From an uncultured Planctomycetales bacterium (GTDB lineage Bacteria > Omnitrophota > Gorgyraeia > Zapsychrales > JANLHA01), in assembly GCA_964374105.1 (NCBI GenBank), contig CAYJXI010000003.1, positions 13,336 through 77,335 on the forward strand: DNA of 64,000 nucleotides, written 5' to 3'. Shown one piece after another: positions 1,958-17,201 of the stretch (positions are counted from its first letter, which is position 1; each line of letters opens with the position of its first letter). Position numbers and translations under genes: made by a program. Below the pieces are notes generated by a model that was not told the DNA's origin, did no database searches, and was given only the letters and a program-made list of their open reading frames with translations.

Positions 1958-2233
1958 ATGCAAAAACGTAAATGGACCAGTCAACAAAAACTACAAATCG
2001 TGCTTGAAGGCTTATCCGGCTCAATCGAAATCAGCAAATTATGTTCCAAATATCAAATCGGGCAAACGCAATACTATCAATGGCGCGATCATTTACTGAA
2101 ATTCGGCCACCAAGCCTTTGAAACCAAAAACATCACCAAGAAAGAACAGCATTTAGAAAGCCAAGTTACCAAACTCAAAAGGATCATCGGCGATATGACT
2201 ATTGAGTTAAAAAAAAGCGAATACGAACTATGA
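1958..2233 (+). CDS. IS3-family transposase OrfA (HTH DNA-binding part).
   Basis: A 91-aa protein with WTSQQKLQIVLE and YYQWRD HTH-like motifs, typical of IS3 OrfA. It overlaps OrfB by ATGA. Confidence 0.8.
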   Translation: MQKRKWTSQQKLQIVLEGLSGSIEISKLCSKYQIGQTQYYQWRDHLLKFGHQAFETKNITKKEQHLESQVTKLKRIIGDMTIELKKSEYEL

Positions 2234-3015
2234 AAAGAGCCCAATCCTTATCCGTCGCTAAACGCAACCAAGAATTACTTGAAAAAATCAAAGAAATCAA
2301 AACCGACCACCCTCTCTGGGGTTATCGCCGTATCTGGTCGTATTTAAAATACCGTCAAGGAATAGCGGTTAATAAAAAACGTATCTACCGGATTATGAAA
2401 GAACAAGACTTAATCGTCACTAAACTCGTGCGTCTCAAGGCTAAGCGCGGGCCGATGCGCCCCAAACCGCACGCTGACCGCCCCAATCAATTCTGGGGCA
2501 TTGATATGACCAAAATCAAATTGGCTTCCTGGGGTTGGTTGTACCTGTGCGTCGTTTTAGACTGGCACACCAAAGAAATCATCGGCCACTCTTTGTCTCT
2601 ACGTTCTAAAACTGAAGATTGGCTCGACGCTTTACAAATGGCCGTCAATAACCGATTCCCCAACGGCGTCCGTGAATCGCTCAAAGATCAGAAATTATTT
2701 TTAATATCCGATAACGGCTGCCAACCCACATCACAACGATTCATGATGAACTGTTCCATCCTGGGCGTTAAACAAATCTTTACAACCTGGTCAAACCCCA
2801 AAGGCAATTCGGATACTGAACGTGTCATGCGCACCATCAAAGAAGATATTGTCTGGTGTTACGACTGGGATCATCCATTTAATTTTCAAATCGCTTTAAC
2901 CAAATGGATCAATGATTACAATACCGACTTCCCACACCAATCGTTAAACAACATGACACCAAGTCAATTTTATGAACAATTTTTGTCAAATAACAGCGAG
3001 CTAGTTCTACCTTAA
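2230..3015 (+). CDS. IS3-family transposase OrfB (DDE integrase core).
   Basis: DRPNQFWGIDMT, ISDNGCQ and TERVMRTIKED integrase-core motifs. The C-terminal FPHQSLNNMTPSQFYE is typical of IS3/rve-domain transposases. Confidence 0.85.
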   Translation: MKRAQSLSVAKRNQELLEKIKEIKTDHPLWGYRRIWSYLKYRQGIAVNKKRIYRIMKEQDLIVTKLVRLKAKRGPMRPKPHADRPNQFWGIDMTKIKLASWGWLYLCVVLDWHTKEIIGHSLSLRSKTEDWLDALQMAVNNRFPNGVRESLKDQKLFLISDNGCQPTSQRFMMNCSILGVKQIFTTWSNPKGNSDTERVMRTIKEDIVWCYDWDHPFNFQIALTKWINDYNTDFPHQSLNNMTPSQFYEQFLSNNSELVLP

Positions 3016-3206
3016 AATTCCCTTGCTTAATGGGGTGCATTACATTTACGCTTTTTAACTAAATGTTGAACTTCCTCATAAGAAAAAATATCAATATTTA
3101 TTTATTGACCAGATCGGGACACCACTATCGTCTCAATCCTATCGGCTTCACACAGAATGTTGAGATAGTAAACGCCACTGACCATTAGATTACAAGATAA
3201 TCGCAT

Positions 3207-4763
3207 TCATATCTTCTTTTTCTGAAATACCAATGTTGCAAATGTATACTGACATCCCCCATAAGAGAAGTCGGGATCAGGGCAGTCCCATTGAGGAGAA
3301 TCCACAAGCGAACAATCTTTTAATAATGGAAGAATCCTTTGGTTAAAATCCTTTTGTGTATAAAAACGAAAGTCTTCTTGCGGGATTCGATCCCCCGGTT
3401 TGTAATGGTCATTATAGTCACAGGTAAGAATTGTGATGCCACCCGGGGTAAGAAGTTCTATTATTTGTTTTATAAATAGTTCATCATTTTTTACATGCTC
3501 AAGAACGGATGTTGAGAAGATGATATGATAACTACCCTTCTTAGTGGATGGTTTGTGAAAAAATTCGTCCAAATTATAATTCAGCAAGGGATCAATTTCA
3601 TCTATACGGAAGCCTAATCGCTTCAATGCAGCTGCTGCTGTATCTTCATAGCTACCAACACACAGGACTTTGGGTAATGCAAATTTTGATGCGAACTTAT
3701 ATACGGTATCAAGGACAAATGCTTGTTGAATATTTGCTTCGGGTATTTTGCGTGCCATCATGTTGGGTACTAGAGTAAACAATGTATCTATCGATGGTTT
3801 ATATTGTATTCGTGCGGTATTATCCAATATTCGATTGAGTGATAATCCATCGGGAAGCAAAACAGGAGAATATTGAGCATTTTCTGATTCTGAGGATCCT
3901 CGATAACCATTTTTTATTTTTAGAATCCACGACATCCTCGGTCTTTGTAATATTTCCTTGCGTACCATGGATTGAATTTTTTGAATAAAGGACAATGGAT
4001 TCTTGGCTTTATCAGATTGTCTATGGAACACTTTTTCAAGAATCCGTTCATAATCCCAAATGAAGTTTGTCTCACTCCAATCGTTGTAAAAATGAGAAAG
4101 CGGTTCAAATCCATGCTTAATAATTTGTCTTAAAGTAGAATCTTCAATGCAAATGGATGGGATCGCTGGGATTATGTGCCTGAACATACTGCTCTTTGCA
4201 ATGGTAAGGGGTCTTTGCACGGCAATAGCATAATCTATGACACTGGATATCCCTCGACCAAGATATTTGTCATAAAAGAAAGCATTAATTGTATTTTGTG
4301 CCAGAAAATCTAACAATTGTTTTTTATCAAGAAAATCATGATTGATTATTAGCTTAATGCCCGGCTTTTTAATCAGCTTTTTACATTGCATTGCAATTAG
4401 CATGGCATGCTGACCATCGTTATCACAAAATTGGCCAAAGGGGATATGTAATCTTATAATCGCCTCATCAAACTCATCTTGTGTAGTAAGAATGACCCGC
4501 TCAAATCCTTTTCCTGTAATTCCAAAACCAAAACTGCCGATAGTAGGAACTTCTGGAAATTTGTAAGTATTAAGGTATTGTGGGATAAGTCTTCCGGTTT
4601 TAAACACAATTGGATTCCTGAGGAGTAAAGTCGGATCAGGAGCTATATAATATTGAAAAGAGTTGCTATTTGCTAAATCGGCACTTTCTTGTGTAACTTC
4701 ATGCATAATACCAATGGTGGGGAGGTGGAACTGTTTGATTAATTTTCTATTTAGCCATGGCAA
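3207..4763 (-). CDS. Two-domain sugar-modifying protein. The N-terminal part is glycosyltransferase-like; the C-terminal part is a class I SAM-dependent methyltransferase.
   Basis: The C-terminal VLCVGSYEDTAAAALKRLGF...ILTCDYN matches SAM-binding motifs I and post-I. The called start is TTG. The in-frame upstream sequence (4764-4979) encodes RILIISHKEQRCGVHQYGINIAEALKK, a typical glycosyltransferase N-terminus, with no ATG, so the true start is unclear. Confidence 0.5.
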   Translation of the reverse strand: MPWLNRKLIKQFHLPTIGIMHEVTQESADLANSNSFQYYIAPDPTLLLRNPIVFKTGRLIPQYLNTYKFPEVPTIGSFGFGITGKGFERVILTTQDEFDEAIIRLHIPFGQFCDNDGQHAMLIAMQCKKLIKKPGIKLIINHDFLDKKQLLDFLAQNTINAFFYDKYLGRGISSVIDYAIAVQRPLTIAKSSMFRHIIPAIPSICIEDSTLRQIIKHGFEPLSHFYNDWSETNFIWDYERILEKVFHRQSDKAKNPLSFIQKIQSMVRKEILQRPRMSWILKIKNGYRGSSESENAQYSPVLLPDGLSLNRILDNTARIQYKPSIDTLFTLVPNMMARKIPEANIQQAFVLDTVYKFASKFALPKVLCVGSYEDTAAAALKRLGFRIDEIDPLLNYNLDEFFHKPSTKKGSYHIIFSTSVLEHVKNDELFIKQIIELLTPGGITILTCDYNDHYKPGDRIPQEDFRFYTQKDFNQRILPLLKDCSLVDSPQWDCPDPDFSYGGCQYTFATLVFQKKKI

Positions 4764-5003
4764 GGTTGTTGGATGATAATTGTAAATAATGGCCGATGGT
4801 TCTATGCTGTGAATCGCATTAAATAACTCTTGCGGGTTTGAACACTCGGTATAAACAAAAAGGTATTTCGTTGATTTTTTTAGTGCTTCCGCAATATTTA
4901 TTCCGTATTGATGAACTCCGCAACGTTGTTCTTTATGTGAAATGATTAGAATTCTTGTGTTCGTATGCTTTGTCTCTTTCTAATGTTTATAAATTTTCTT
5001 TTT

Positions 5004-6263
5004 TTATTTTTTGATAATCTCAATAGTCGGGAGCGGAAATATCAAGCCAACCCCGCTTTGGAGCATCCCTTGCTCACGTTCTATAAACTCTTCTTTAAAA
5101 TGCCATGGTAAAACAAGATAATAGTCGGGGTTCATCGCACGTGACTCTTCTTCACTGACAATAGGAATGTCCGTTCCCAGAGTATGTGCTCCATATTTAT
5201 CGGGATTGCGTTCCGCAGCCACATCGATAATACGATGATCAATCCCACACCATTGAAGGATTGTATTTCCTTTGGTTGATGCACCATAGATATGAATTTT
5301 CTTCCCCTCCTTTTTTAGCTTTTTAAGAAGCGAGGTAAGTTCTTCTTTGTGAATATTAATGCGTTCTTGAAAATTTTTATACGGTTTATCGGTATCTAAT
5401 TCAAGGTCGAATTCTTCTTGGCGCAAGGTTTTGATGTTTTGAATAAACTCGTCTTTTTTATAGATAAAATTATCCGTATGAGTGGCATAGCAACGAATAC
5501 TGCCGCCATTAATTGTATTCTGTGTGACGTCAAAAACTTTCATCCCTGCCTGTTTCAAAATATACTCAATGACCGCCAAGCTATAATACTCTAAATGCTC
5601 ATGACAGATTGTGTCGTAGGAAGTCATCCTAAGCATAGTTGGCATGTATGACATTTCGAAAATCCATACACCATCAGGTGCAAGAATACTCTTAATCTCC
5701 TTCGTAAATTGAATTGGATTTTCAAGGTCATAAAACATGGCGATAGCGGTGATGATGTCGAATTGTTTATTTTGCATACGGGTTTTTAATTCATCCGTTG
5801 GAAAAATATCACGGATCACTATAATGTTACCTTGAATTTCTTGAGCTATGTCAGAGGGATCCACGCCGAATTTTTCAAATTCCTGAGGATAACATTTAAG
5901 CAGTGTCCCATCATTGCACCCAATATCTAGGACGCGGGCTTTAGGTTTTCGAAAGATAGTAACAGCTTCATTAACAATACCCTTTAAATGCTCCCGCATA
6001 GTTTTGTTGGTACCAGAACGATACCAGTAAGCAGAGTAAAGAACCTCTGGAGGGACTGTGTGTTCCATCTGTAGTAGTCCACAGGCCAGTTCATCTTTCA
6101 TGGGATCGCATCGCACAAGCGATGTAGCTATTTTTCGTGTCGGTGGCATTTGTTTGCCGGGCTTTACAAATGAACCTTGCAGATATTGTTCGCCAAGATC
6201 AATGACTTTGGTCAGAGCGCATGAACCACAAACACGACAATTCTTTCGGTGAATTAAATGCAT
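5004..6263 (-). CDS. SAM-dependent sugar C-methyltransferase (TylCIII-like) with an N-terminal zinc ribbon.
   Basis: The N-terminal CRVCGS...C motif is a zinc ribbon. VLDIGCNDGTLL is SAM motif I. The C-terminal domain with IYGASTKGNTILQ resembles the C-methyltransferase C-terminal domain of NDP-hexose methyltransferases. Confidence 0.55.
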   Translation of the reverse strand: MHLIHRKNCRVCGSCALTKVIDLGEQYLQGSFVKPGKQMPPTRKIATSLVRCDPMKDELACGLLQMEHTVPPEVLYSAYWYRSGTNKTMREHLKGIVNEAVTIFRKPKARVLDIGCNDGTLLKCYPQEFEKFGVDPSDIAQEIQGNIIVIRDIFPTDELKTRMQNKQFDIITAIAMFYDLENPIQFTKEIKSILAPDGVWIFEMSYMPTMLRMTSYDTICHEHLEYYSLAVIEYILKQAGMKVFDVTQNTINGGSIRCYATHTDNFIYKKDEFIQNIKTLRQEEFDLELDTDKPYKNFQERINIHKEELTSLLKKLKKEGKKIHIYGASTKGNTILQWCGIDHRIIDVAAERNPDKYGAHTLGTDIPIVSEEESRAMNPDYYLVLPWHFKEEFIEREQGMLQSGVGLIFPLPTIEIIKK

Positions 6264-6282: not shown

Positions 6283-6732
6283 TTATTTACTCCTATGGAG
6301 TCGTTCAATCATAGTTCGGAATTGTTGATCAATTTTGTCAATACATTGATTGCGTTTTAGATTTAGAAGGGCTAGCCGTTTGACAACGGCATCTTTTTCT
6401 TTTAGAGGTACTTTTTCAAATTCATAAACTTTTTCCTGTTCATGCCATAGATTACAATTGACAGTGGTGAGTTCGGACAATAATTCTCCTATATTGCCTT
6501 GAATTTCATCAATCACGTTTCCTTCTTTTTTAAAGACTTTGTTAGAAGCGAACGTCAATCGTTCTAAGGGAATAAGCCCAGTAATAGCCCCTTGAAAGAA
6601 CTCATTAATTTCTTCTTGAAGTTGTTTTTCTTGAGTCGCAAGGCTTTTTTGGTGTTCCGGATTATCGGAATGCCATTGTTTAAGTTTGACGACTGTTAAT
6701 TTATCGCATAAGGATCCAAGTGTTTCGGCCAT
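6283..6732 (-). CDS. Hypothetical protein (149 aa), conserved-looking, in the polysaccharide locus.
   Basis: Clean ORF, no recognizable catalytic motif. Its position suggests co-transcription with the methyltransferase. Confidence 0.4.
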   Translation of the reverse strand: MAETLGSLCDKLTVVKLKQWHSDNPEHQKSLATQEKQLQEEINEFFQGAITGLIPLERLTFASNKVFKKEGNVIDEIQGNIGELLSELTTVNCNLWHEQEKVYEFEKVPLKEKDAVVKRLALLNLKRNQCIDKIDQQFRTMIERLHRSK

Positions 6733-6917: not shown

Positions 6918-8228
6918 TCATAACTTCAATTTTAAAGGCGTAATTATTGCATATAACATTAATTTTAAATTATGTCTAGCTTTGGAATAGAAAAGGTCGA
7001 TAATAAATATAGTTATTGAGAACGAGACTATACTAGCCCATATTGCACCAAAGCTATGATATTTTGGGATCAGAATGTAATTAAGAAGAACGTTGAGGAA
7101 AGCCCCAATCACTGATGTTAATAATGAATAACGGAATAGATTTTCATTTATAATAAATAATAGATTCTTTGCGATACCAAAATTCGCGAAAAAAAGCCTG
7201 ATGCTTAGAAGTGAAAGCAATGCAGCAGAATATTCGTAAGCATTACCGTAAATTGTAAGAACAATAATTTTTGCAAGGAAAAAAATTGGTATCGCCGAAA
7301 AAAGAAAAAATAAAAACATCAGGCGATAATTGTTAAGAAGATAATTATAATATTGAGCATTATCATTCATTTGTGCGCGTGTTATAGCAGGAGCGATAGA
7401 GTTGCAAACTACAGTTGGGAGTAAGATAAAAATTTCTATGACCTTCAAAGCGGCAGAATATTGGCCGACCTCTTCATCCCCCAGCATTTGTCCTAGCATT
7501 ATCTGATCCATATATGATTGAATGAACAAAGCAAATGCGCTTAGCATCGCCGGCCAGCAATTTATAAGTAAAATCCTTGTCCTTTCTAAAGTCGCTTGAA
7601 ATATCTTAAGAGATCTCCCGTAAATTCGATAGGCGACTGTGAATGCTACCGCTTGTAAGAGAAGTTCTAGCCAAAAAATCCAGGCAAATGTTATTAAAGG
7701 AGTTTTTGAAACGACTAAAAGCACTTTTAGTAGAGAGATAATGAAGAAAACCAATATTTTTGCAATAACAGTATACTTAGACTGTACTTGAGATTGAAAC
7801 CAAAAGTCAACAACTTCAAATGCTGTAAAGATATAGCTTGCGGCAATAATACCTACCAACCACCATGTCAGCGTGTCTGAAGAACGTAAGGTTATAATCA
7901 CACCAAGACAGATACATAAAACAAGTATACCTCCGAAAAACTTAAGGATAAAGACAGTTGCTAATATTTCATCTGTTTTATCTTGTTCTTTTACAAGATC
8001 ACGAACAACAATACCTCTGAGACCTAAATCGGCCAGAATACCAGCAATGAAGACAAAGGCAGTAGCAAAATTCAATTTACCGTATTGTTCTGGACCCAAA
8101 TAACGCGCGATCAAACCTACAAGAAAAAGACCAAGAATGCTACGCAGGATATTTTCCACTAAAAGCCAGGATGAATTGACAAGATATTTCCCTACAACGT
8201 TTTGTTTTAATATAGAGAAAAATGACAT
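6918..8228 (-). CDS. Oligosaccharide/O-antigen flippase (Wzx-like, MOP superfamily).
   Basis: A 436-aa polytopic membrane protein with about 12 TM segments. The N-terminus LVGLIARYLGPEQYGKLNFA is characteristic of polysaccharide biosynthesis protein/Wzx. Confidence 0.7.
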   Translation of the reverse strand: MSFFSILKQNVVGKYLVNSSWLLVENILRSILGLFLVGLIARYLGPEQYGKLNFATAFVFIAGILADLGLRGIVVRDLVKEQDKTDEILATVFILKFFGGILVLCICLGVIITLRSSDTLTWWLVGIIAASYIFTAFEVVDFWFQSQVQSKYTVIAKILVFFIISLLKVLLVVSKTPLITFAWIFWLELLLQAVAFTVAYRIYGRSLKIFQATLERTRILLINCWPAMLSAFALFIQSYMDQIMLGQMLGDEEVGQYSAALKVIEIFILLPTVVCNSIAPAITRAQMNDNAQYYNYLLNNYRLMFLFFLFSAIPIFFLAKIIVLTIYGNAYEYSAALLSLLSIRLFFANFGIAKNLLFIINENLFRYSLLTSVIGAFLNVLLNYILIPKYHSFGAIWASIVSFSITIFIIDLFYSKARHNLKLMLYAIITPLKLKL

Positions 8229-8349: not shown

Positions 8350-9362
8350 ATAACGTGAGTTCGACATAACGGTTAAGCTAAAAGGCCCAAAGAATAAACT
8401 TCCGGATACCTGATGGAAGGTTTCTTGGGAAAAAAAGTATAAGCTACTAAGCCCGAAAACAAATTAACCAGAAAGTTGGCTGGACTGCGATGTCGGGTGT
8501 GTTCAATCTGACACATATTCTTGAGTTCATCGTTAAAGCTTTCGATCAAAGCCCGTTTACGCAACAAGAGTTTATCCATCAACGGCATGAGTTTGTTGGC
8601 CATATTCTTTTTCAGTTTGGTGATTAATTGAATACCTCGTTTGAACAAGAATTGAAACAGTGGATTTGAAAGATAACCTTTATCACCAAATAGTTTACCA
8701 ATAATGTTCTTTGTTAAAGTTTTTATTAAGGACCGATCACGATCATCAACATTGCCTGGGGTTAACATCGTTGAGAGAAGTTCGCCTTTTTCGTTGACGA
8801 TCAAATGCAATTTGAAGCCATAAAACCAACCCATCGATGTCTTACCTCTTTGGGCTATTGGTTTAAACGTTTTATGTTGATGAATCCTGCGGTTGTGGCA
8901 GACCTTAAGGGTTGCGGAATCGAAAAAAGATATTCCAGTGACTTTCCCAAATCGGCAACGTTGCAGATACGTGATCAATGGGACCAGAACTCCTGGCATC
9001 AATTCCACAAACCGATTGTAACTGACTAAGCCAGGAAATTCACGGCGCAGATTTTGGGAAACGTATTTGATGTAATAATTTTTGAAAGTTCGGAATCCCG
9101 ACATATGAAAATTTATCACGATCGTCATAATTTCGCTTAAACACAAACTGCAGGGCTTGATACGTTTGGCCAAACCCTGCTTGAGTAAAAATCTTTGCCA
9201 AAATCGAAGAAATGCTTTACAAAAGTTATCAATCTCATAGAATATGTTCAGTAACATTAGGACCTCCTTGTGTTGGTTGTATTTGCTGTACAACTACTTA
9301 TAACACTAGAGGTCCTTCTTTTTTATCGGAATCTTAATTTTCTTATGTCGAGCTCACGTTAT
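8350..9362 (-). mobile_element. IS982-family insertion sequence, about 1.0 kb.
   Basis: 20-bp terminal inverted repeats ATAACGTGAGTTCGACATAA (8350-8369) and TTATGTCGAGCTCACGTTAT (9343-9362) match at 19 of 20 positions. They bracket a single DDE transposase gene. Confidence 0.75.
8373..9257 (-). CDS. IS982-family DDE transposase.
   Basis: The protein has DSATLKVCHNRRI...GDKGYLS, typical of IS982 transposases. The likely start is the internal ATG (MLLNIFYE), which is preceded by AAGGAGG. The track's longer TTG start at 9293 is rejected. Confidence 0.8.
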   Translation of the reverse strand: MLLNIFYEIDNFCKAFLRFWQRFLLKQGLAKRIKPCSLCLSEIMTIVINFHMSGFRTFKNYYIKYVSQNLRREFPGLVSYNRFVELMPGVLVPLITYLQRCRFGKVTGISFFDSATLKVCHNRRIHQHKTFKPIAQRGKTSMGWFYGFKLHLIVNEKGELLSTMLTPGNVDDRDRSLIKTLTKNIIGKLFGDKGYLSNPLFQFLFKRGIQLITKLKKNMANKLMPLMDKLLLRKRALIESFNDELKNMCQIEHTRHRSPANFLVNLFSGLVAYTFFPKKPSIRYPEVYSLGLLA

Positions 9363-9363: not shown

Positions 9364-9504
9364 TTAGATGATAGTATATGTTTTCTCGATGACCGATTTA
9401 ATCGTTTCTTCGATATCCCATTCTGCGTTAAAACAAAGTGTAATGATTGATACCTTGGGCCTTTCTGATTTAAACAATTTTGACTTCCCCTTCCGGATAT
9501 TCAT
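9364..9504 (-). pseudogene. GT2 glycosyltransferase remnant, N-terminal piece interrupted by IS982.
   Basis: The ATG at 9502-9504 overlaps the 3' end of the GT9 gene. The frame encodes MNIRKGKSKLFKSERPKVSIITLCFNAEWDIEETIKSVIEKTYTII, the classic GT2 N-terminus (SIIT.CYNAE..I.ETI.SVL.QTY). It ends exactly at the IS982 right inverted repeat. Confidence 0.6.
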
Positions 9505-10645
9505 AATTGGAATTGATCTTTTTTTTAATAGCTGAAAAGATTTTTTCTAACTTGATGTTTCGCATACAATGGAAACTTCCTTGGCAGGTTGGGATCGTGT
9601 AACCAAATAAGGTACAAGGAGAACATTCTACATTCTCAGTGATTACAGAATGATTTTTACCGATAGGTTCCCATTTTTTGAGATTGCCAGGTCCAAAAAT
9701 TCCAATTACTGGAGTCCCCACGGCACAAGCTAAATGCATCAATCCAGAGTCTGGTCCAACAAATAATTTACTTTTTTTTATTAAAGCAGCGCTTTCCATT
9801 AATGAAATCTTCCCTACGAAATTGAAAACTCGATTATCTTTAATCCCATGTAAAATTTCACGAGCATATTGTTGAACATCTTTTCCACCCAAAACGGCAA
9901 TAGAAAAATTCCTATTTAAGATAAATCTAATGAGTTCTAAGCTTTGAATTCGATCTAAACGTCTTACAGCAATACTGGCTCCTAAAAAGACTGTGATATA
10001 AGGATGTATCATTGTTTGATCTGCCCAAATGAGAGTTTGAGAATCGATGTGAAAACAGTCATTAATATTTTCTATCTCTTGGCATTCAGGGAGAATTGGA
10101 AGGAATAACCTCTTAAAATTTTCAATTTCATAACTATTGATTTCATAATTGACTTTATAATTAAAAAGTTTTGCACGATTGAATCTAGTGCCAAATCCCA
10201 TGTTTGTTTTGTGCTTTACGAAATACGAAATCAAGGCACTTAAATAGTGCCATTGTTCGGTATCTACGATTACATCATATTGATTTTTAAATAGAGAAAG
10301 AAAGGATTGAGGTACATCATAACAATAAATATTGTCACCCATATCCTTTTGTGAGGAAAACACCGCACTATTTCTTTTTTCACATAAGATATCAACCGAG
10401 GCGGTTTTATTGAACTTTTTTAACTTACGTAAAAATGGAATTAAAAAAATGGCATCCCCAATTCCTCCCGGTCTAATAATAAGTATTTGATCGTATTTCA
10501 AGCCTTTTTGTGATACATTTTTCTTTTCCTTAACCAAAAAGGTCAACAAAAGGCCAAACGTCAAGTCAAGGAGTTTAATCATTTTTAATTTCAATGATCC
10601 AAGAGAATGAATGACTTCTAAAATGTTAATATTTACGGTTTGCAT
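9470..10645 (-). CDS. Glycosyltransferase family 9 (heptosyltransferase-like).
   Basis: ILIIRPGGIGDAIFLIPFLRKL near the N-terminus and LFVGPDSGLMHLACAVGTPVIGIFGP near the C-terminus are the two GT9 signature regions. Confidence 0.65.
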   Translation of the reverse strand: MQTVNINILEVIHSLGSLKLKMIKLLDLTFGLLLTFLVKEKKNVSQKGLKYDQILIIRPGGIGDAIFLIPFLRKLKKFNKTASVDILCEKRNSAVFSSQKDMGDNIYCYDVPQSFLSLFKNQYDVIVDTEQWHYLSALISYFVKHKTNMGFGTRFNRAKLFNYKVNYEINSYEIENFKRLFLPILPECQEIENINDCFHIDSQTLIWADQTMIHPYITVFLGASIAVRRLDRIQSLELIRFILNRNFSIAVLGGKDVQQYAREILHGIKDNRVFNFVGKISLMESAALIKKSKLFVGPDSGLMHLACAVGTPVIGIFGPGNLKKWEPIGKNHSVITENVECSPCTLFGYTIPTCQGSFHCMRNIKLEKIFSAIKKKINSNYEYPEGEVKIV

Positions 10646-11525
10646 TTTTATTTACCTTAGCAATAACCCAAACAACATTATTTGGAAAGAATAAATTTAA
10701 AGGCATGGATAGAATATATGAAATACTATCTTGAGGTAGAATTTTATTAAGAAGTCTTAGGGATTTTTTCGAAAGAAAATATTGTCTGATGTTAAACATG
10801 ATTGTTGGGATTGTATCATATCCTAGGATGACGATTTCCAATCCTAACTGCGTGAGTAAAGTTTTTAGGGAATCCCGTCCAAAATGCCATAAATGATGAG
10901 GTACAGCCCACAATACGGCATATTGCCGAAATATTTTCATTTCTAAAGAATCTGCATTAGGAACAACAATATAAAAATGAGACGCCCCATTGAGTATAAA
11001 TTTTTGTAAAAATTGATGGGGGTTTTTAATATGTTCAAGGACATGACGTAAGATAACAACTTTATTTTTAATTATATGTGGATCTTGAATTTCAATAGTT
11101 TCGTAATTGAACTGATGATAAGGAATTTCGGGAATCGATTTTATATAATATGGCCTTTCTTGAAAAGCATCCACAGAATGGACTGAATACCCCATTTTAT
11201 AAAGAACTTCAGAAAATTCACCGAATCCAGCTCCTACATCTAAGAATTCCCGAGATTTTGCATAATGAATGAACCTCTTGATTTCCCAATAATTAAGAAT
11301 TTTTTTAAAGCAGTATTTAAGTTTATTATCAGGCGCGTTGAATATTTGGGGACTATAGAGAGAACTCAGATCCCCTGGTATCGGCCATGTTTTTTTTATT
11401 TTGCAGTTAGGGCACTCAAAAATGGTATATGGATTTTTGAAGTCTGGATTGAGAATTTCTAGAACATTATTTATTTTAACTAATTTATTGCAATTGAGAC
11501 AAGTAGTAACTTCCATTGTCTTCAC
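10626..11525 (-). CDS. Class I SAM-dependent methyltransferase with an N-terminal Cys4 zinc ribbon.
   Basis: CLNCNK...CPNCK is a zinc ribbon. LDVGAGFGEFSEVL is SAM motif I. The 3' end overlaps the GT9 gene start by 20 nt. Confidence 0.55.
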   Translation of the reverse strand: MKTMEVTTCLNCNKLVKINNVLEILNPDFKNPYTIFECPNCKIKKTWPIPGDLSSLYSPQIFNAPDNKLKYCFKKILNYWEIKRFIHYAKSREFLDVGAGFGEFSEVLYKMGYSVHSVDAFQERPYYIKSIPEIPYHQFNYETIEIQDPHIIKNKVVILRHVLEHIKNPHQFLQKFILNGASHFYIVVPNADSLEMKIFRQYAVLWAVPHHLWHFGRDSLKTLLTQLGLEIVILGYDTIPTIMFNIRQYFLSKKSLRLLNKILPQDSISYILSMPLNLFFPNNVVWVIAKVNKNANRKY

Positions 11526-11535: not shown

Positions 11536-12408
11536 TTATAAAGGATTTGAAAGGTAGAGAATCATAATCACAAAGAGGATCCACAATATAATGTTAATCA
11601 ATAACGGTCGATCTGATAACAAGATTTCTCCCGGATCATCTCCAAATTTTTTCACATGAACAAGGTAAAGGTATCTGAAAATCCCGTATATTACAAACCC
11701 TACAGAATAGATCATATAATCTTGGCCAACTCGGATCATAATATCTGCGGACAATGTGTATAATCCATAAAAGACAATACTCAATGTTGAACATATGATG
11801 ATGATTTGATCAAGAAGATAAGTCGTATAATGGGCCAAAACACTTCTGTGCTCAGGGGCTTGATCCTTTAGAGTGGTAATCTCATGGCGTCTTTTTGTAA
11901 ATCCTAAAAATAAAGCTAATAGAAAAACACAGAGTTGAAATCTGGCTGAGGGCAAAACACCACTGGCCAGGGCGCCAGCCCAGATCCTTAACTGAAACCC
12001 AGCAGCAACAAATACGACATCAAGGATCACAATTTTCTTAGTATAAAGATTATAAATGAGGTGCAAAAGGATATATAGAACTCCCATATAAAAGATAAAG
12101 ATATCGACCACAAAACAAATCAAAAGTCCTAAACTCAACAAGCCCACAATAAGTCCAATAATTTGAGAATTCTTAAATTTTCCTTGGGCCAAAGGTCTAG
12201 AGGCTTTTTTGGGATGTAGACGGTCTTTATGACTATCGATATGATCATTAAATATATATGTTCCACTCGCAATTAAACAAAATCCTACAAAAGTTACGAC
12301 ACAATTGAGGAGGCGATTAATGTCAAATAAATTTCCGGAGAAAATAAGTGGGAAAAAGATAAAGGCATTCTTAATCCACTGTTTTATTCTCAATAACTTT
12401 GATAGCAT
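11536..12408 (-). CDS. UbiA-family prenyltransferase, decaprenyl-phosphate 5-phosphoribosyltransferase-like (polyprenyl-P-pentose donor synthesis).
   Basis: A 290-aa protein with 8-9 TM segments. The N-terminus IKQWIKNAFIFFPLIFSG and the Asp-rich NDHIDSHKD motif match the mycobacterial Rv3806c-type UbiA phosphoribosyltransferase pattern (QWVKN...NDxxDxxxD). Confidence 0.55.
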   Translation of the reverse strand: MLSKLLRIKQWIKNAFIFFPLIFSGNLFDINRLLNCVVTFVGFCLIASGTYIFNDHIDSHKDRLHPKKASRPLAQGKFKNSQIIGLIVGLLSLGLLICFVVDIFIFYMGVLYILLHLIYNLYTKKIVILDVVFVAAGFQLRIWAGALASGVLPSARFQLCVFLLALFLGFTKRRHEITTLKDQAPEHRSVLAHYTTYLLDQIIIICSTLSIVFYGLYTLSADIMIRVGQDYMIYSVGFVIYGIFRYLYLVHVKKFGDDPGEILLSDRPLLINIILWILFVIMILYLSNPL

Positions 12409-12431
12409 AAATCACCTGCCCTTGTTGAACC

Positions 12432-14402
12432 TCATTGAATAAGAATTTCGCCCAATTTGAGCACAGTCTTTTGTTCATCAAAGGTTTTTATATAAGGCAA
12501 ATCCTCTTTTGTCTGATTAGCAATTTCGATTGTCGATATTTGGTTTTGATCTGCGTTAAAAAAGAAAATTTCTAGGGAATATTGGCCTGGAGGCAGTGAG
12601 GGTGGCAAAAGGAGCCAATAATTTTCTTTGATAAAATCTCCTTTTTCCCAAGAGACTGTTGGATAAATCGAATAACCGATACGTCTAACGCGAGAATCAA
12701 CCGTTTCATCCCCCTTTTTGATATATAATACCATTTTGTAATTTTCTTTAACATCAACATCAGATTTCCAAAGAAATGTGAGCGGTAAAAGAGATCTGCG
12801 GGAATGTAAAGACGGCCCTATTTTAGAAACTAGAAGTCGGAACCGATGATCAATAAGAACTTGGGGGGATTGGGAAATATCTTCTGGACCATGATCTTTC
12901 ATCACTTCAACAAGTCTGATCCCTTCCTCGTCTTCTCTTTCTAAAAGTACTATGTCTTCAACTGCATCTTTGACCTTCCAGTTCACTTGAGAGAAAAAAG
13001 GATCTTTAAGAAGCACAATGGTGGATGGCTTCCGAATTACATCTTGTAAAACCCATTCATCCTCGAAGTCTATTAGGGCGTATGATATTTCAGGGGGTGG
13101 TCGAAAAGGATACCCTGTCAAACCATTAAATCCTCTTGTTACATTTAAAAATGAATAGAGATGTTTACGTCGGGATAGTTCATTTAAAAAATCAAATGTG
13201 GCGATAATCCCAGACTCGGGAGGAATCTGTTTTATCATTTTCCAGCGAATAGGATCGAGCTTATCAGGAATCATAGAAATACGAGAGGATAACATCGACT
13301 TATAACTTAAGGTGCTAAATAAGCAAACGAAGGCAATAATAATGAATGTTGTACAAAAAAAGCAAGTTCTTGTATTGGCTTGCAAATATTTTAATGATTT
13401 AGCAGCCGCTAAGAAAACAAATGGAACAATAGATGTATTGTAATGAAAGAAAATAGTGTGTTGTGACCATGGATAAGCTAAAATATTCTGTAGAAGAATT
13501 GGGGAAATTATAAAGAGTGTTTGAGGGTTTAATAATGGAATAAATAGAAGTGGACCAAAGAGCTCTCGATAATAATACAGATTGTCTGGATGAACAATAT
13601 GTTGTTTAAAAATTTTTATAGGATGAGATAAAAGGGTCCCAAGGATTTGTAAAGGGGTATTCCCTAAACCTAAAGAAGAATATAAAACAAGGTACTGATG
13701 GGGGCTAGGTAGATCTCTTCTGATAGTGGGTGTGATGATAAACAACACTATATAAAAATAAATGGACCCAAATAAGATCGGAATTAATCCCCATCTTAAC
13801 TTATTTGTCTTTTTAGAAAAAAGAATGTAAATACCAAATGCAAAAATAATTAATGACATGTTTTCTTTAAGGAGGGGAATTAATATCATCACAATAAAAA
13901 ATGCTTTAAATCTTTCTTCTCTATAAAAATAATACAAAAGGAAAAGAAAAATAACGGATAAGCTTTCAAAATCAAATTCGAAAAGAAGAGCAAAGATGTT
14001 GGCTGGGAAAAAGATAAAAAGAATCATCAAAATTAAGGCCATTATGGGATGGAGATCTTTTTTGACAATGGTATAAAGCATAAAGGCACCGGAAAAGAAG
14101 GAAAGAAGTTTTAAATAAATCAGGGTCAAAGAATGAGGAAAGAGGAAGTATATGGGTGTAATCAATAAAGCAATATAATTCGCATGATTGGCAAAAAAAT
14201 TCATACCTATGAGAGAAGAATAAAAAGATCCATGGGTTAGATTCCACATGGCATGGGAATATATCGCCAAATCCCAATCATAATAACCGAAAAAATAATA
14301 TTTATAAGTTAAAAGAATAAACCATGATGTGAAGCCTAACAAGGATATAAACAAAGCCACTAGATCGTAATGTTTATATTTTTTAGTCAAGGAATGTTCC
14401 AA
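12432..14402 (-). CDS. Large polytopic membrane protein, GT-C-fold glycosyltransferase candidate (DUF2079/ArnT/PMT-like), with a C-terminal soluble domain.
   Basis: A 656-aa protein with about 11 N-terminal TM helices. The acidic motif YYDWDL sits in the first extracytoplasmic loop right after TM1, which is where GT-C enzymes carry their catalytic D/E motif. The C-terminal 250 aa are hydrophilic. Start-to-stop spacing suggests an operon with the UbiA-family gene. Confidence 0.45.
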   Translation of the reverse strand: MEHSLTKKYKHYDLVALFISLLGFTSWFILLTYKYYFFGYYDWDLAIYSHAMWNLTHGSFYSSLIGMNFFANHANYIALLITPIYFLFPHSLTLIYLKLLSFFSGAFMLYTIVKKDLHPIMALILMILFIFFPANIFALLFEFDFESLSVIFLFLLYYFYREERFKAFFIVMILIPLLKENMSLIIFAFGIYILFSKKTNKLRWGLIPILFGSIYFYIVLFIITPTIRRDLPSPHQYLVLYSSLGLGNTPLQILGTLLSHPIKIFKQHIVHPDNLYYYRELFGPLLFIPLLNPQTLFIISPILLQNILAYPWSQHTIFFHYNTSIVPFVFLAAAKSLKYLQANTRTCFFCTTFIIIAFVCLFSTLSYKSMLSSRISMIPDKLDPIRWKMIKQIPPESGIIATFDFLNELSRRKHLYSFLNVTRGFNGLTGYPFRPPPEISYALIDFEDEWVLQDVIRKPSTIVLLKDPFFSQVNWKVKDAVEDIVLLEREDEEGIRLVEVMKDHGPEDISQSPQVLIDHRFRLLVSKIGPSLHSRRSLLPLTFLWKSDVDVKENYKMVLYIKKGDETVDSRVRRIGYSIYPTVSWEKGDFIKENYWLLLPPSLPPGQYSLEIFFFNADQNQISTIEIANQTKEDLPYIKTFDEQKTVLKLGEILIQ

Positions 14403-14459: not shown

Positions 14460-15467
14460 TCAATTTAATGTCTTATAAACCTTACGCCAATAACGAGACA
14501 AGAATTTCACTTTTCCTTCTAGCCAATGGATATGATTCTTAGCCCAAGCAATTGTCGAAATAAGACCCTGTTCGAACTTGATGTGAGGTTGCCAGCCTAA
14601 TTTTTTTATCTTGTCATAGTTTAAAGAATAGCGAAAGTCATGACCGGGACGATCTCTGACAAATTGAATGAGATCAGAAGATTTTTGTAAATACTGAAGG
14701 GCTAACCGAGCCACATCAATATTTCGCTTTTCAAAGGGGCTGCCTATGTTATAAGTTTCTCCTATTTGTCCTTTTTCTAAAATGAGCAGTATGGCGGCAA
14801 TACAATCACTGACATGCAGCCATTCCCGGATATTCAACCCCCTCCCATAAACCGGGATTTTTTTATTTTTTAAAGCCTTGAGGATAATCACGGGAATAAA
14901 CTTCTCTGGATATTGCCATGGCCCGTAGTTATTGGTGGGCCGTATAAGAATGGCCGGCAATCGGTGGGTTCGGATGGCCGCTTTAATAAGACAGTCGGCG
15001 GAAGCCTTTGTCGCGGAATAAGGATTATTGGGACTTAGAGAAGAGGACTCGTTAAATTCCCCCTTCTTGATTTCTCCGTAAACCTCATCCGTAGAGATGT
15101 GAAGGTATTTGGAAATATGAAATTTTCTGACACCATCAATGAGATTTTGTGTTCCTTTAATATTAGTTTTGATAAAAGGATAGGGGTCAAGGATACTTCG
15201 ATCCACATGGGTCTCAGCCGCAAAATGGATGATGGCCTTAGGTTTTTCCTTTTTTATAATGTCAGCAACTTTTGGAAAATGACAAATATCTTCTCGGTAA
15301 AAAATAATCTGGCCTTTGACAGACTGCAAACGGGTCAAATCCCCTGCATAAGTCAATTTGTCAATAACCACAACTTTGTAACCACGCGCCACCCCCTGCC
15401 TTACAAATTCGCTGCCAATGAATCCTGCCCCTCCGGTCACCAATATCTTGGATGAAAATTTAGTCAT
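14460..15467 (-). CDS. rfbB: dTDP-glucose 4,6-dehydratase.
   Basis: ILVTGGAGFIGSEF Rossmann motif, STDEVYG, the catalytic YSATKASADCL (YxxxK) and PTNNYGPWQYPEKFIP are all RmlB hallmarks. Confidence 0.9.
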   Translation of the reverse strand: MTKFSSKILVTGGAGFIGSEFVRQGVARGYKVVVIDKLTYAGDLTRLQSVKGQIIFYREDICHFPKVADIIKKEKPKAIIHFAAETHVDRSILDPYPFIKTNIKGTQNLIDGVRKFHISKYLHISTDEVYGEIKKGEFNESSSLSPNNPYSATKASADCLIKAAIRTHRLPAILIRPTNNYGPWQYPEKFIPVIILKALKNKKIPVYGRGLNIREWLHVSDCIAAILLILEKGQIGETYNIGSPFEKRNIDVARLALQYLQKSSDLIQFVRDRPGHDFRYSLNYDKIKKLGWQPHIKFEQGLISTIAWAKNHIHWLEGKVKFLSRYWRKVYKTLN

Positions 15468-15520
15468 ATCTTCAAAGGAAACGGGCTTAAAGCAATACTT
15501 GTAAATCTAATTCAGCGGTT

Positions 15521-16342
15521 CTAATTCTTAAGGTAACTTTGCACACATTTTTCCAGGATATCTCTGGTCTTTCTAACCGGGAACCCGATTTTTTCGAGTT
15601 TTTTGCATGTGAGGATGAGGTTAGTCCTTTTTAATTTTAATTTGTCGTATTCAATAAGTTCAAATTGAAAATCCGGGACATGTCTTTGATAGATTTTCAG
15701 AAGGTCCGGATAATAAAGAGCGCCTTTGTTAATCACGTTGAATAGACCCTTAGCATTCTTTTTAAGCAAATATTTCAGTGCCCGAATAAAATCGGGAATG
15801 TAAGTCACTGAGTTGGGAACATCAATGACCTTTTTATATTGAATCAGTTTGGTCAAGAGATTTTTAGGATGAGGCCTGTCATCCAACGGAATGCGGATCC
15901 GGGTGATTAAGATATTAAATTGGCGGGAGAGGATTTCTAAGGGCTTTTCACTGTAGATTTTGGTCCGACTATAATAAAGGTCAAAATAATCCGGAATTTT
16001 TTTTTCATCAATGGGTTTGGATTGAGAATAATCATAATGGTAGATACACCCACTGGAGACATGAACTAATTTGATGTTATTTCGCAAGGCCCCTTCCGCC
16101 AAAAGTAAAGGAACAAAGGTATTGGCCTGAATTGTTTTTTCGGGTTGAAGTTCACAGTCATCGACATTCCTATCCCCCGTATATCCGATGCAATTGATCA
16201 TGATCTTAGGGTTAAATTGATGGATTAAATCCTGCACATCTTTAAGCTGATGAATTTTGGAGTCGTTGATCGTGCCATTCAGCCCTTCCTTGAGCCGTTG
16301 ACCGATATAACCTTTTCCTAAGATCAGGATCTCTTTATTCAC
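15521..16342 (-). CDS. RmlD-family NAD(P)-dependent dTDP-4-keto-6-deoxyhexose reductase.
   Basis: N-terminal ILILGKGYIGQRL Rossmann motif and a YSRTK catalytic YxxxK. The gene overlaps rfbA by 8 nt. No rmlC epimerase is present in the window, so the product may not be L-rhamnose. Confidence 0.55.
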   Translation of the reverse strand: MNKEILILGKGYIGQRLKEGLNGTINDSKIHQLKDVQDLIHQFNPKIMINCIGYTGDRNVDDCELQPEKTIQANTFVPLLLAEGALRNNIKLVHVSSGCIYHYDYSQSKPIDEKKIPDYFDLYYSRTKIYSEKPLEILSRQFNILITRIRIPLDDRPHPKNLLTKLIQYKKVIDVPNSVTYIPDFIRALKYLLKKNAKGLFNVINKGALYYPDLLKIYQRHVPDFQFELIEYDKLKLKRTNLILTCKKLEKIGFPVRKTRDILEKCVQSYLKN

Positions 16343-17201
16343 TTAAAAGAACTCCTTTAAGATATTCGCCATAATTTGTTTTGATGGCGCTGGCCAGTTT
16401 TATAAGCTGTTGGGAAGTAATATACCCCATGCGGTAAGCAATCTCCTCGATGCAACCCACTTTAAGGCCTTGGCGGTCCTCAATGGTTCTGATAAAGGTT
16501 GAGGCTTCAATCAAAGAATCATAGGACCCGGTATCCAACCAGGCATAACCCCGGCCTAGCAATTCGACCTTTAAGGCTCCCTTTTTAAGATAGGCATTGT
16601 TCACATCGGTGATTTCCAGTTCCCCCCTCTGGGAAGGTTTCAAAGATTTGGCGATCTTAATGACTCGATGATCATAGAAATATAACCCGGTGCAGGCCCA
16701 GTTCGATTTTGGTTTTGACGGTTTTTCTTCAATAGAAATGACTTTCTTCTTTTTATTAAAGTGAATCACGCCATAGGCTTGGGGGTTTTTGACATAATAA
16801 CCAAATATCGTGGCTCCTTTCTTTCTTAAACTTGCTCTTTTAAGACATTGGGTGAGATTATGGCCGTAAAAGATATTATCACCCAAAATAAGGGCAACCG
16901 GACTCTTTTTAATAAAATCCTCTCCAATGAGGAAGGCCTCAGCAATCCCGCGAGGTTGTTGTTGGACTTTGTAATGAAAAGTCAATCCCAGATCCTTTCC
17001 CGTTCCAAATAGATTTTCAAACCGAGGGAGGTCTTTAGAGGTGGAAATGATAAGAATCTCTCTGATTCCGCTGAGCATTAATACCGAAAGCGGATAATAG
17101 ATCATGGGTTTATCGTAAATGGGAATGAGTTGTTTGCAAACAGCTCTTGTGATTGGATATAATCTTGAACCTGTCCCTCCAGCCAGGATAATGCCTTTCA
17201 A
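16335..17201 (-). CDS. rfbA: Glucose-1-phosphate thymidylyltransferase.
   Basis: MKGIILAGGTGSRLYPIT followed by QLIPIYDKPMIYYPLS is the RmlA signature. The start is TTG, preceded by AAGGAAAG. Confidence 0.9.
   Translation of the reverse strand: MKGIILAGGTGSRLYPITRAVCKQLIPIYDKPMIYYPLSVLMLSGIREILIISTSKDLPRFENLFGTGKDLGLTFHYKVQQQPRGIAEAFLIGEDFIKKSPVALILGDNIFYGHNLTQCLKRASLRKKGATIFGYYVKNPQAYGVIHFNKKKKVISIEEKPSKPKSNWACTGLYFYDHRVIKIAKSLKPSQRGELEITDVNNAYLKKGALKVELLGRGYAWLDTGSYDSLIEASTFIRTIEDRQGLKVGCIEEIAYRMGYITSQQLIKLASAIKTNYGEYLKGVLLSE

Follow-up and report, generated by a model that had tools for sequence, protein, structure and literature searches.

A 64-kb stretch of Omnitrophota DNA (the window, meaning the whole stretch that we analysed) carries, side by side on its minus strand, a gene for a UbiA-fold membrane enzyme and a gene for a polytopic membrane protein of the DUF2079 family. 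Both ORFs lie exactly where an earlier note on this DNA had placed them, and the motifs quoted in that note, NDHIDSHKD in the UbiA-fold protein and YYDWDL in the DUF2079 protein, are indeed present in the translations (Table 1). The public annotation starts the DUF2079 ORF 14 codons later than we do, giving a protein of 642 aa. The DUF2079 gene is the upstream member of the pair. Given the 23-nt spacing between the two genes, the AGGTGA-like Shine-Dalgarno sequence preceding the UbiA ATG and the lack of a convincing terminator in the intergenic stretch, the sequence makes co-transcription plausible; a promoter scan returned 57 sites against 53 in shuffled sequences, that is, no excess.

Table 1. 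Features of the locus, with positions numbered along the window
Feature	Coordinates	Strand	Remarks
Wzx (MOP) flippase	6918-8228
GT9 (heptosyltransferase-family) glycosyltransferase	9470-10645	-	PF01075, E = 1e-31
SAM-dependent methyltransferase, 10 nt downstream of the UbiA gene	10626-11525	-	PF13489, E = 2.4e-16
UbiA-fold membrane enzyme, predicted polyprenyl-phosphate 5-phosphoribosyltransferase (PRPP-dependent donor synthase)	11536-12408	-	290 aa, ATG start
NDHIDSHKD motif, residues 54-62 of the UbiA-fold protein	12223-12249	-	Translation, alignment to 8j8j
DUF2079 polytopic membrane protein, predicted GT-C-fold glycosyltransferase	12432-14402	-	656 aa from TTG
C-terminal soluble region of the DUF2079 protein (approximately residues 383-656), with a beta-sandwich at its end	12435-13256	-	Model secondary structure
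YYDWDL motif, residues 40-45 of the DUF2079 protein, just past TM1 in the predicted first periplasmic loop	14268-14285	-	Translation
rmlA, 273-aa RmlD-like SDR and rmlB, directly upstream of the pair	14460-17201	-	TIGR01207 and TIGR01181 above cutoff
PMT_2-TPR GT-C gene next to type IV pilin-like genes	56585-58390

The surroundings are largely as the earlier note had described them: three methyltransferase genes, the Wzx gene and rmlA/rmlB are all present, but the GT9 enzymes, to which the note referred in the plural, come down to a single gene. A homologue of the methyltransferase nearest the pair recurs in one related locus (L005), and other methyltransferases hold its position in three more (L002, L004 and L088). 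GT9 is the most consistent third neighbour: genes of the same neighbour cluster occur in 11 loci, mostly one or two genes past the UbiA gene, and GT9 also adjoins DUF2079 in four loci that have no UbiA gene (L084, L097, L116 and L127). The rmlA/SDR/rmlB trio was found again in L087 and is missing from L088 and L089; it represents a dTDP-6-deoxyhexose supply for the same glycan locus and stands outside the conserved pair.

Subfamily and active site of the UbiA-fold enzyme

A Pfam HMM search matched the 290-aa protein to PF01040 (UbiA, E = 4.6e-23) and found in it no extra domain and no fused HAD phosphatase domain. Against the NCBIfam equivalog NF008977, 'decaprenyl-phosphate phosphoribosyltransferase', it scored 257.4 bits with a cutoff of 234, and the runners-up were further models of DPPR synthases, together with NF006088, which describes a HAD-UbiA fusion. 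The best match in both sequence and fold was Rv3806c of M. tuberculosis (8j8j). The two sequences align end to end (E = 1.5e-21, 27% identity), and the AF2 model (pLDDT 76), which has the nine-helix UbiA-like fold, matches 8j8j_A with a TM of 0.78 (E = 1.1e-8); 8j8j_A and 8j8k_A head the list of fold matches, above archaeal UbiA homologues.

As a member of the UbiA superfamily that shares the NDxxDxxxD motif, and whose model also matches the archaeal homologue 4tq4 (TM 0.73), the protein might be suspected of being an ordinary prenyltransferase, aromatic or lipid, from the synthesis of quinone, heme O, chlorophyll or archaeal-type lipids, that has been mis-named by homology. The UbiA, CyoE, ChlG and DGGGP-synthase models, however, reach 17-39 bits against 257 for the phosphoribosyltransferase model, the best of them being TIGR01474 at 39 bits, and the surrounding genes are those of glycan biosynthesis, not of quinone or heme synthesis. 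The assignment to a menaquinone, heme O or chlorophyll subfamily that the earlier note had named as fatal to its reading did not occur, and we regard the prenyltransferase explanation as extremely improbable. By sequence and predicted structure, then, the protein is a member of the Rv3806c phosphoribosyltransferase subfamily, as had been claimed. This subfamily spans more than 15 phyla.

The active site argues in the same direction. Using residue roles determined in Rv3806c (PMC10994848), we compared 12 ligands of Mg2+, PRPP and decaprenyl phosphate established by cryo-EM and mutagenesis (R22, K28, Y70, N73, D77, K87, R90, Q135, Y138, K143, Y157 and K191). All but two of these are identical in the UbiA-fold protein (10 of 12), as is E195, and 13 of the 16 substrate, Mg2+ and motif residues checked are identical altogether. 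The two substituted ligands are Q135, which corresponds to H116, and Y157, which corresponds to F138; Phe is found at the latter position in some mycobacteria too (PMC10994848). The ten identical ligands are invariant or nearly so among 71 homologues, and within the NDHIDSHKD motif N54 and D58, which align with the Mg2+/PRPP ligands N73 and D77, are invariant across all 71.

The DUF2079 protein and its conserved pairing

The 656-aa protein matched PF09852 (DUF2079, E = 3.3e-43) in a Pfam HMM search; this was its sole match, and the search placed it in no established GT-C family (GT136, GT83, GT53 and GT66, for example). Sequence and profile searches against PDB chains returned nothing at E ≤ 10. 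Its AF2 model, a confident one (pLDDT 90, pTM 0.90), displays a GT-C-like membrane-domain fold. Foldseek against the PDB yielded ten full-length matches at E ≤ 0.001, all of them oligosaccharyltransferase catalytic subunits, namely STT3 from the yeast, human and canine OST complexes and archaeal AglB (3wak), with ArnT (5ezm and 5f15) and ALG9 (9s6s) lower in the list. With TM values of 0.33-0.47, the resemblance to GT-C folds is moderate.

The YYDWDL motif places acidic residues in what is predicted to be the first extracytoplasmic loop, where a GT-C enzyme is expected to have one. Among 46 homologues, the most distant of them 24% identical, D44 never varies and D42 is conserved in at least 90%; an Asp of this motif is the candidate catalytic acid. 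The N-terminus is rich in lysine and loop 1 is poor in lysine and arginine, consistent with an in-to-out orientation of TM1. In the model the C-terminal region resembles Ig-like and ML-domain folds (NPC2, MD-2, RhoGDI and the Ig domains of GH2) and is possibly a glycan-binding module; the beta-sandwich is optional, being missing in four homologues of about 485 aa (P0168, P0171, L003 and L007). The predicted fold, the conserved acidic first-loop motif and the soluble C-terminal domain bear out the earlier description of the large partner as GT-C-like.

A GT-C-like fold could nevertheless belong to a glycan polymerase or ligase, or to a translocase of the lipid-linked sugar, and a translocase would be a convenient answer to the absence of any linked flippase gene. 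The moderate TM values and the nil sequence similarity leave room for such a function, as does the literature: in those parts of it that our search covered, no paper mentions 'DUF2079', and PF09852 is cited in a graph-analysis study of membrane-protein motifs. Yet the best full-length structure matches are bona fide GT-C transferases, the invariant Asp after TM1 occupies the catalytic-acid position of several solved GT-C enzymes, and a C-terminal beta-sandwich like those of ORF12, EmbC and AftD fits a transferase that binds its acceptor. We therefore give a non-transferase role for DUF2079 a small chance and treat the protein as a putative glycosyltransferase.

The pairing of the two genes is far above chance. 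DUF2079 occurs within 5 kb in all ten of the close UbiA loci, which are from Omnitrophota, and directly upstream in nine; in the window, L003, L004, L006-L008 and L087-L089, the gene directly upstream is DUF2079 on the same strand, at spacings of about -44 to +34 nt. Reciprocally, a scan of metagenome contigs with the narrow DUF2079 alignment A3 (the broad A2 being too diverse) found a UbiA gene directly downstream in 17 of 25 informative DUF2079 loci, eight of those 17 with a 4-nt overlap. The lack of co-conservation that would have counted against the earlier note is thus not observed, and a gene like those for polyprenyl-phosphoribose synthase (PPPRS) beside a GT-C-like gene, as in the known three-component systems, is here a conserved arrangement. 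On the other hand, the UbiA gene is missing from eight of the 25 DUF2079 loci, and about 63 UbiA loci of other phyla are without DUF2079, so neither protein strictly requires the other. Large polytopic neighbours of UbiA homologues are few in other phyla (14 of 73 loci have one, mostly the Omnitrophota loci).

These exceptions raise the question of whether the two proteins merely share a glycan locus, with DUF2079 taking another polyprenyl-linked donor and the phosphoribosyl lipid feeding a different transferase. The eight DUF2079 loci without UbiA, the distant homologues paired with GT2 or GT9 genes and the many phyla in which the UbiA subfamily occurs without DUF2079 are all compatible with this. 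The window even holds a candidate for the other user, since the PMT_2-TPR GT-C gene beside type IV pilin-like genes recalls the TfpW-type arabinosylation of pilin (PMC11127046). Against it, gene order and strand are fixed, stop and start codons overlap in many loci, and the pair is kept together while the flanking genes change. Moreover, in three distant DUF2079 loci (L083, L090 and L091) a GT2 gene occupies the UbiA position, and its best NCBIfam matches, all under cutoff, are AglJ, Dol-P-hexose transferase, PpgS and ArnC, all of which charge a polyprenyl or dolichyl phosphate carrier with sugar. Replacement in place of one lipid-phosphate-sugar synthase by another fits a donor-transferase relationship. 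We thus consider separate donors unlikely and predict, from the adjacent PPPRS-like or ArnC/PpgS/AglJ-like GT2 genes, that DUF2079 uses a polyprenyl-phosphate-linked sugar donor.

Proposed pathway and comparison with known systems

We propose, with somewhat better than even confidence, that the pair, a donor synthase and a GT-C enzyme, works as a module by which an LPS-like envelope glycan receives a pentofuranose (probably ribofuranose) on the periplasmic side. The first step is suggested by homology, and the transfer step by gene context together with the fold and the conserved motif. The UbiA-fold enzyme would work at the cytoplasmic face, moving 5-phosphoribose from PRPP to polyprenyl phosphate, and its strong homology to Rv3806c suggests polyprenyl-P-ribofuranose-5-P as the product. 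The carrier is probably undecaprenyl phosphate, because the host is a Gram-negative-type bacterium of the PVC group. A phosphatase encoded elsewhere would then strip the 5'-phosphate and a flippase, likewise unlinked, would move the lipid-linked sugar outward. Finally, the DUF2079 transferase, with its Asp42/Asp44 loop in the periplasm, would hand the pentofuranose to the acceptor, perhaps assisted in glycan binding by its C-terminal beta-sandwich. To judge from the neighbouring genes, the acceptor would most likely be LPS, in its core or O-chain region: the pair marks the conserved border of a glycan locus that is otherwise variable, and the next gene is usually a GT9 of the heptosyltransferase family. 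The Omnitrophota genomics paper makes no mention of LPS, glycosyltransferases or UbiA.

The accessory genes of comparable pathways were sought in a Pfam scan of every non-overlapping window ORF of at least 118 aa. As the earlier note had stated, no DprE1-like FAD oxidase or DprE2-like reductase is found among these ORFs; nor did ten related loci, examined out to about 7 kb from the pair, show DprE1/DprE2 or any other epimerase. A 5'-phosphatase (HAD/PRP or PAP2) is likewise missing from these ORFs and from the related loci. Among the non-overlapping window ORFs of 60-117 aa, a crude hydropathy count, in which no ORF had more than one hydrophobic segment, gave no candidate for a small 4-TM flippase (SMR/GtrA-type), and the window and related loci contain no linked MATE-, SMR- or GtrA-type flippase, Wzx (MOP) being the only flippase in the window. 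Two steps of the pathway are consequently left without an assigned gene.

Because no epimerase is linked to the pair in any of the ten related loci, the transferred sugar is most likely ribofuranose, an argument from absence of evidence within a 64-kb window where arabinofuranose is concerned. The same module could add arabinofuranose or xylofuranose if DprE1/DprE2-like or SDR-type enzymes, with their genes elsewhere in the genome, were to epimerise the polyprenyl-P-ribose, as happens in mycobacteria, in P. aeruginosa pilin glycosylation and in C. youngae O2. All characterised Araf and Xylf systems begin with the same PPPRS step (PMC11127046); what is visible here is 64 kb of the genome, and the RmlD-like 273-aa SDR, which has GxGxxG and YxxxK motifs, is located three genes upstream of the pair. 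The described systems, however, cluster their epimerases with the PPPRS gene (L082 being a complete example). We rejected the SDR as a lipid-pentose epimerase, as it co-occurs with rmlA/rmlB (L087) and not with the pair, being gone in L088 and L089, and so belongs to the dTDP-sugar pathway. An epimerised sugar is in our judgement unlikely.

Since none of the loci has a linked phosphatase gene, the donor is perhaps used without dephosphorylation. On this reading, which we consider unlikely, DUF2079 would found a new GT-C family in a minimal two-gene system that adds ribofuranose-5-phosphate to the LPS core; the charged sugar phosphate would be a conserved housekeeping decoration of Omnitrophota envelopes, unlike the side chains described to date, which are neutral and serotype-specific.

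Experimentally proven systems of a PPPRS and a GT-C transferase decorate O antigens with Ribf, Xylf or Araf (Kelly et al., PNAS 2024, PMC11127046). In the Citrobacter youngae O1/O2 genes ORF15-ORF14-ORF12, as predicted for the window, a UbiA-fold PRPP-dependent synthase lies beside a polytopic GT-C-fold transferase; ORF12 and the DUF2079 protein share a length of about 650 aa, a beta-rich C-terminal domain and an LPS/O-antigen-type locus, and serotype O1 also has no epimerase, implying ribofuranose. In contrast, ORF12 belongs to GT136, which DUF2079 probably does not, the two being set apart by description only (CDD describes ORF12 as EpsG-like). The window synthase carries no HAD phosphatase domain of its own, nor is a gene for a separate phosphatase or a MATE/SMR flippase linked to it. 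The Omnitrophota pair holds a fixed chromosomal position across its clade, whereas the C. youngae type is serotype-specific.

The mycobacterial DPA pathway (Rv3806c, Rv3807c, DprE1/DprE2, Emb/Aft) follows the same logic of a lipid-linked pentofuranose donor for GT-C enzymes, and its first enzyme, homologous over the full length, shares fold and PRPP, Mg2+ and lipid-phosphate ligands with the UbiA-fold protein. It differs in having DprE1/DprE2 and a PAP2 phosphatase, in the sequences of Emb/Aft, which are unrelated to DUF2079, and in its target, as the glycan in this host is not arabinogalactan or LAM. The ArnC/ArnE-F/ArnT and GtrB/GtrA/Gtr systems also combine a lipid-phosphate-sugar synthase with a GT-C transferase to decorate LPS periplasmically, and ArnT is among the structure matches of DUF2079, whose distant relatives pair with ArnC/PpgS/AglJ-like GT2 genes. 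Their donor synthase, however, is a GT2 enzyme that uses a nucleotide sugar, not a UbiA-fold enzyme that uses PRPP, and the window has no ArnE/F- or GtrA-like flippase. In L082 (fecal scaffold MT837543, UbiA-HAD-SMR-SDR-DUF6044) a UbiA protein 37% identical to that of the window again heads a cluster closing with a large polytopic protein, but in this locus a phosphatase, a small transporter and an epimerase are present, which are missing from the window. Its membrane protein is a DUF6044 protein, and we rejected DUF2079 and DUF6044 as one detectable family (hhalign profile probability 0.4%).

The pathway concept itself is already published (PMC11127046), and our results leave it unchanged. 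The earlier note's proposal of an unusual lipid-linked pentose pathway is supported as regards the pair, though the pathway is less unusual than supposed, a PPPRS with a GT-C transferase having been proven outside Actinobacteria in 2024; what is new is the DUF2079 partner and the missing accessory genes. If our reading is true, linkage of phosphatase, flippase and epimerase genes is not needed for the pathway to exist, and pentofuranose side chains would extend from cultivated Proteobacteria and Actinobacteria to the Omnitrophota. The latter are uncultivated and mostly ultra-small. The reading would also provide the first testable function for DUF2079, a widespread domain of unknown function, as a GT-C transferase of polyprenyl-phosphate sugars whose donor is set by the adjacent synthase gene, a UbiA-type neighbour indicating a PRPP-derived pentofuranose and a GT2-type neighbour indicating hexoses.

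A predicted phosphoribosyltransferase

The 290-aa UbiA protein matches Pfam UbiA and scores 257.4 bits against NF008977, the NCBIfam equivalog for decaprenyl-phosphate phosphoribosyltransferase, passing its cutoff of 234. In addition to two sister DPPR-synthase models, it matches the UbiA half of NF006088 (a 482-position model of the HAD-UbiA type), whereas models for ubiquinone, heme O, chlorophyll and archaeal-lipid prenyltransferases give it only 17–39 bits. The proposal of the earlier note that this is a DPPR-synthase-like enzyme, and not a classical prenyltransferase, thus withstands the comparison. Residues 4–280 align with Mycobacterium tuberculosis Rv3806c (PDB 8j8j, E = 1.5e-21), and 8j8j is also the top PDB match (TM 0.78) of an AlphaFold model of the protein (pLDDT 76).

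Cryo-EM of Rv3806c has defined the residues that bind Mg2+, ribose, 5'-phosphate, pyrophosphate and decaprenyl phosphate (PMC10994848), and we mapped these to the window protein and 71 homologues. Thirteen residues (R22, K28, Y70, N73, D74, D77, D81, K87, R90, Y138, K143, K191 and E195, Rv3806c numbering) are unchanged in the window protein and vary little, if at all, among the homologues. Y157 is replaced by Phe, as in some mycobacteria, and Q135 by His; K208 is not conserved. These data argue strongly for PRPP:polyprenyl-phosphate phosphoribosyltransferase activity, and, with gene context added to homology and predicted structure, we consider it highly probable that the protein is a PRPP-dependent enzyme of this kind.

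Rv3806c-like UbiA genes that keep all substrate residues also occur in other phyla (L009–L081; Ignavibacteria/Bacteroidota, Aminicenantes, Acidobacteriota, Zixibacteria, Myxococcota and others). In 23 loci the UbiA gene is directly followed by a DUF362 gene (about 360 aa), from a family placed in the same Pfam clan, CL0471, as the LarA lactate racemases. The DUF362 protein could be a candidate DprE1/E2-independent epimerase for lipid-linked ribose.

Pairing of the UbiA and DUF2079 genes

The two genes are separated by 23 nt, and an AGGTGA-like ribosome-binding site precedes the ATG of the downstream UbiA gene. We called the 656-aa DUF2079 ORF from a TTG; in the public annotation its start lies 14 codons further downstream. 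Both motifs reported in the earlier note, NDHIDSHKD (UbiA) and YYDWDL (DUF2079), are present. The pair belongs to a larger same-strand run comprising rmlA, a 273-aa RmlD-like SDR and rmlB, the pair itself, a methyltransferase, a GT9 gene, an IS element, Wzx, a DUF4254 protein, an NDP-hexose C-methyltransferase and a further methyltransferase; the remainder of the window holds housekeeping genes (GatA/B, His and Trp genes, RecA, AlaRS, SecDF and others). The nearest homologues of both proteins are in Candidatus Omnitrophota MAGs, at 60–70% (UbiA) and about 45% (DUF2079) identity, and Omnitrophota contigs share the flanking order FtsH-FolP-CdaA-PdxJ-AcpS-NnrD-QueH. The window thus comes from an Omnitrophota genome.

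A scan of 185,579 species genomes returned more than 600 UbiA relatives. Among the best 80, DUF2079 adjoins only the closest (at least 54% identity; L003–L008) and is absent from about 63 loci of other phyla (40–48% identity); it is present as well at three close homologues looked up individually (L087–L089). With the window counted, DUF2079 lies within 5 kb of the UbiA gene in all ten informative loci and directly upstream on the same strand in nine, where the gap ranges from about −44 to +34 nt. A search of metagenomes with DUF2079 as the starting point yielded 43 loci, 25 of them informative (at least 900 nt downstream); the UbiA gene follows directly in 17 of the 25, and in eight of those 17 the genes overlap by 4 nt. 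Taken together, the counts from both sides show that the pairing is real but restricted to one clade, which bears out the expectation that the two genes are conserved together. In L003 and L004, tandem DUF2079 duplicates stand directly upstream of the UbiA gene, hinting at two transferases with one common donor.

Coordinates of features in the window and in homologous loci
Feature	Location	Coordinates	Strand
UbiA gene	window	11536-12408	-
NDHIDSHKD motif	window	12223-12249	
DUF2079 gene	window	12432-14402	-
YYDWDL motif	window	14268-14285	
rmlA, SDR, rmlB	window	14460-17201	
IS3-type element (two ORFs, rve integrase)	window, glycan locus	1958-3015	+
NDP-hexose C-methyltransferase (Methyltransf_13/14)	window	5004-6263	
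DUF4254 protein, 149 aa	window	6283-6732	
DDE_Tnp_1_3 transposase	window, glycan locus	8373-9293	-
Pilin-like region	window	55937-63890	
PMT_2-TPR gene	window	56585-58390	
HTTM/vitamin-K-gamma-carboxylase-like gene	window	59833-61200	
Tandem DUF2079	L003	6968-9942	
Tandem DUF2079	L004	6101-9972	
DUF362 gene (example)	L068	10851-11939	
Five-gene system	L082 (MT837543.1)	898-5419	
GT2 in UbiA position	L083	7866-9551	
GT2 in UbiA position	L090	7936-8604	
GT2 in UbiA position	L091	7925-9577	

Several further features of the window were recorded. Two insertion sequences lie within the glycan locus, and the one between the GT9 and Wzx genes may interrupt the operon. Although rmlA and rmlB are present, the window has no rmlC; this, with the C-methyltransferase, suggests a dTDP-6-deoxy sugar, possibly C-methyl-branched. 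The rmlA-SDR-rmlB trio is found at L087 too. The DUF4254 gene has Wzx on one side and the C-methyltransferase on the other. A second GT-C-type gene (PMT_2 domain with TPR repeats) is surrounded by five type IV pilin-like genes with the N_methyl motif, and this region, which also holds an HTTM/vitamin-K-gamma-carboxylase-like gene, may serve pilin glycosylation or modification.

The DUF2079 protein as a predicted GT-C enzyme

PF09852 is the sole Pfam match of the DUF2079 protein, and neither its sequence nor a 46-sequence profile matched any PDB chain. A confident AlphaFold model built from the 46-sequence alignment (pLDDT 90, pTM 0.90) gave ten full-length Foldseek matches at E ≤ 0.001, every one a catalytic subunit of an oligosaccharyltransferase (STT3 from the OST complexes of yeast, human and dog, and archaeal AglB, 3wak), with ArnT and ALG9 lower in the list; E values of the GT-C matches start at 1.6e-5 and TM scores are 0.33–0.47. 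The C-terminal part resembles Ig-like beta-sandwiches (NPC2, MD-2, RhoGDI, GH2 Ig domains) and is accessory, since it is missing from some homologues, which are about 485 aa long; the carbohydrate-binding module of Citrobacter youngae ORF12 is likewise reported to be accessory (PMC11127046).

Only four residues (D44, H73, F168 and E180) are invariant among homologues down to 24% identity, and D42 is nearly so. D42 and D44 fall within YYDWDL, in the loop right after the first transmembrane helix, where several GT-C enzymes of known structure carry their catalytic acid (PMC11127046). This loop has few Lys/Arg, and the N-terminus preceding it is Lys-rich. By sequence the protein belongs to none of the families tested; judged by fold and motif, it would work in a GT-C-like manner. 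With homology and gene context considered as well, it is probably a GT-C-type glycosyltransferase, and we lean, with less assurance, towards the UbiA product as its donor.

Five more distant DUF2079 homologues (24–32% identity) are without a UbiA neighbour, and in three of them, at Omnitrophota loci, a GT2, alone or methyltransferase-fused, holds the UbiA position. Its top NCBIfam matches, all below cutoff, are AglJ, dolichyl-phosphate hexose transferase, PpgS and ArnC, enzymes that load sugars onto polyprenyl or dolichyl phosphate. Such an exchange of one lipid-sugar synthase type for another beside DUF2079 is what a pair of donor synthase and GT-C enzyme would lead one to expect, and we regard it as the best contextual support for the role proposed here. 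A GT9 gene is the other recurring DUF2079 neighbour, UbiA present or not; by association, it points tentatively to LPS as the acceptor.

Sugar identity and known pentofuranosylation systems

Among window ORFs of at least 118 aa we found no DprE1/DprE2-like protein, in agreement with the earlier note, and no PAP2 or HAD phosphatase or SMR/MATE/GtrA-like small transporter; shorter ORFs include no small multi-TM candidate. Related Omnitrophota loci lack the same genes. There is thus no gene here to assign to dephosphorylation and flipping. Ribofuranose, favoured over arabino- or xylofuranose because of gene absence within the visible DNA, has roughly even chances of being the sugar. Unlike the window, the fecal scaffold L082, filed as 'Bacteriophage sp.', has a complete five-gene system in which UbiA, HAD phosphatase, SMR/EamA-like transporter, SDR epimerase and DUF6044 genes stand in a row; DUF6044 may be a further GT-C-type partner family.

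In experiments by Kelly et al. (PNAS 2024; PMC11127046), the C. youngae O1 antigen was shown to receive alpha-ribofuranose through the joint action of a polyprenyl-phosphoribose synthase of the UbiA type, a flippase and a GT-C enzyme; given an additional epimerase, such a system adds xylo- or arabinofuranose. The C. youngae synthase has a fused HAD phosphatase, its GT-C enzyme founded family GT136, and candidate systems were named in Proteobacteria, Actinobacteria, Bacillus and one phage (PMC11127046). The window pair shares this logic, so that the lipid-linked ribofuranose donor envisaged outside Actinobacteria fits, but as a concept it was already established (PMC11127046). The pair differs in that its GT-C partner is DUF2079 and not GT136, that no phosphatase, flippase or epimerase gene is linked to it, that its place, at the border of a glycan locus that varies, is fixed, and that it comes from an uncultivated phylum. 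Its functions we infer throughout from homology, predicted structure and gene context, and the main value of the pair is that it offers a concrete, testable function for DUF2079.
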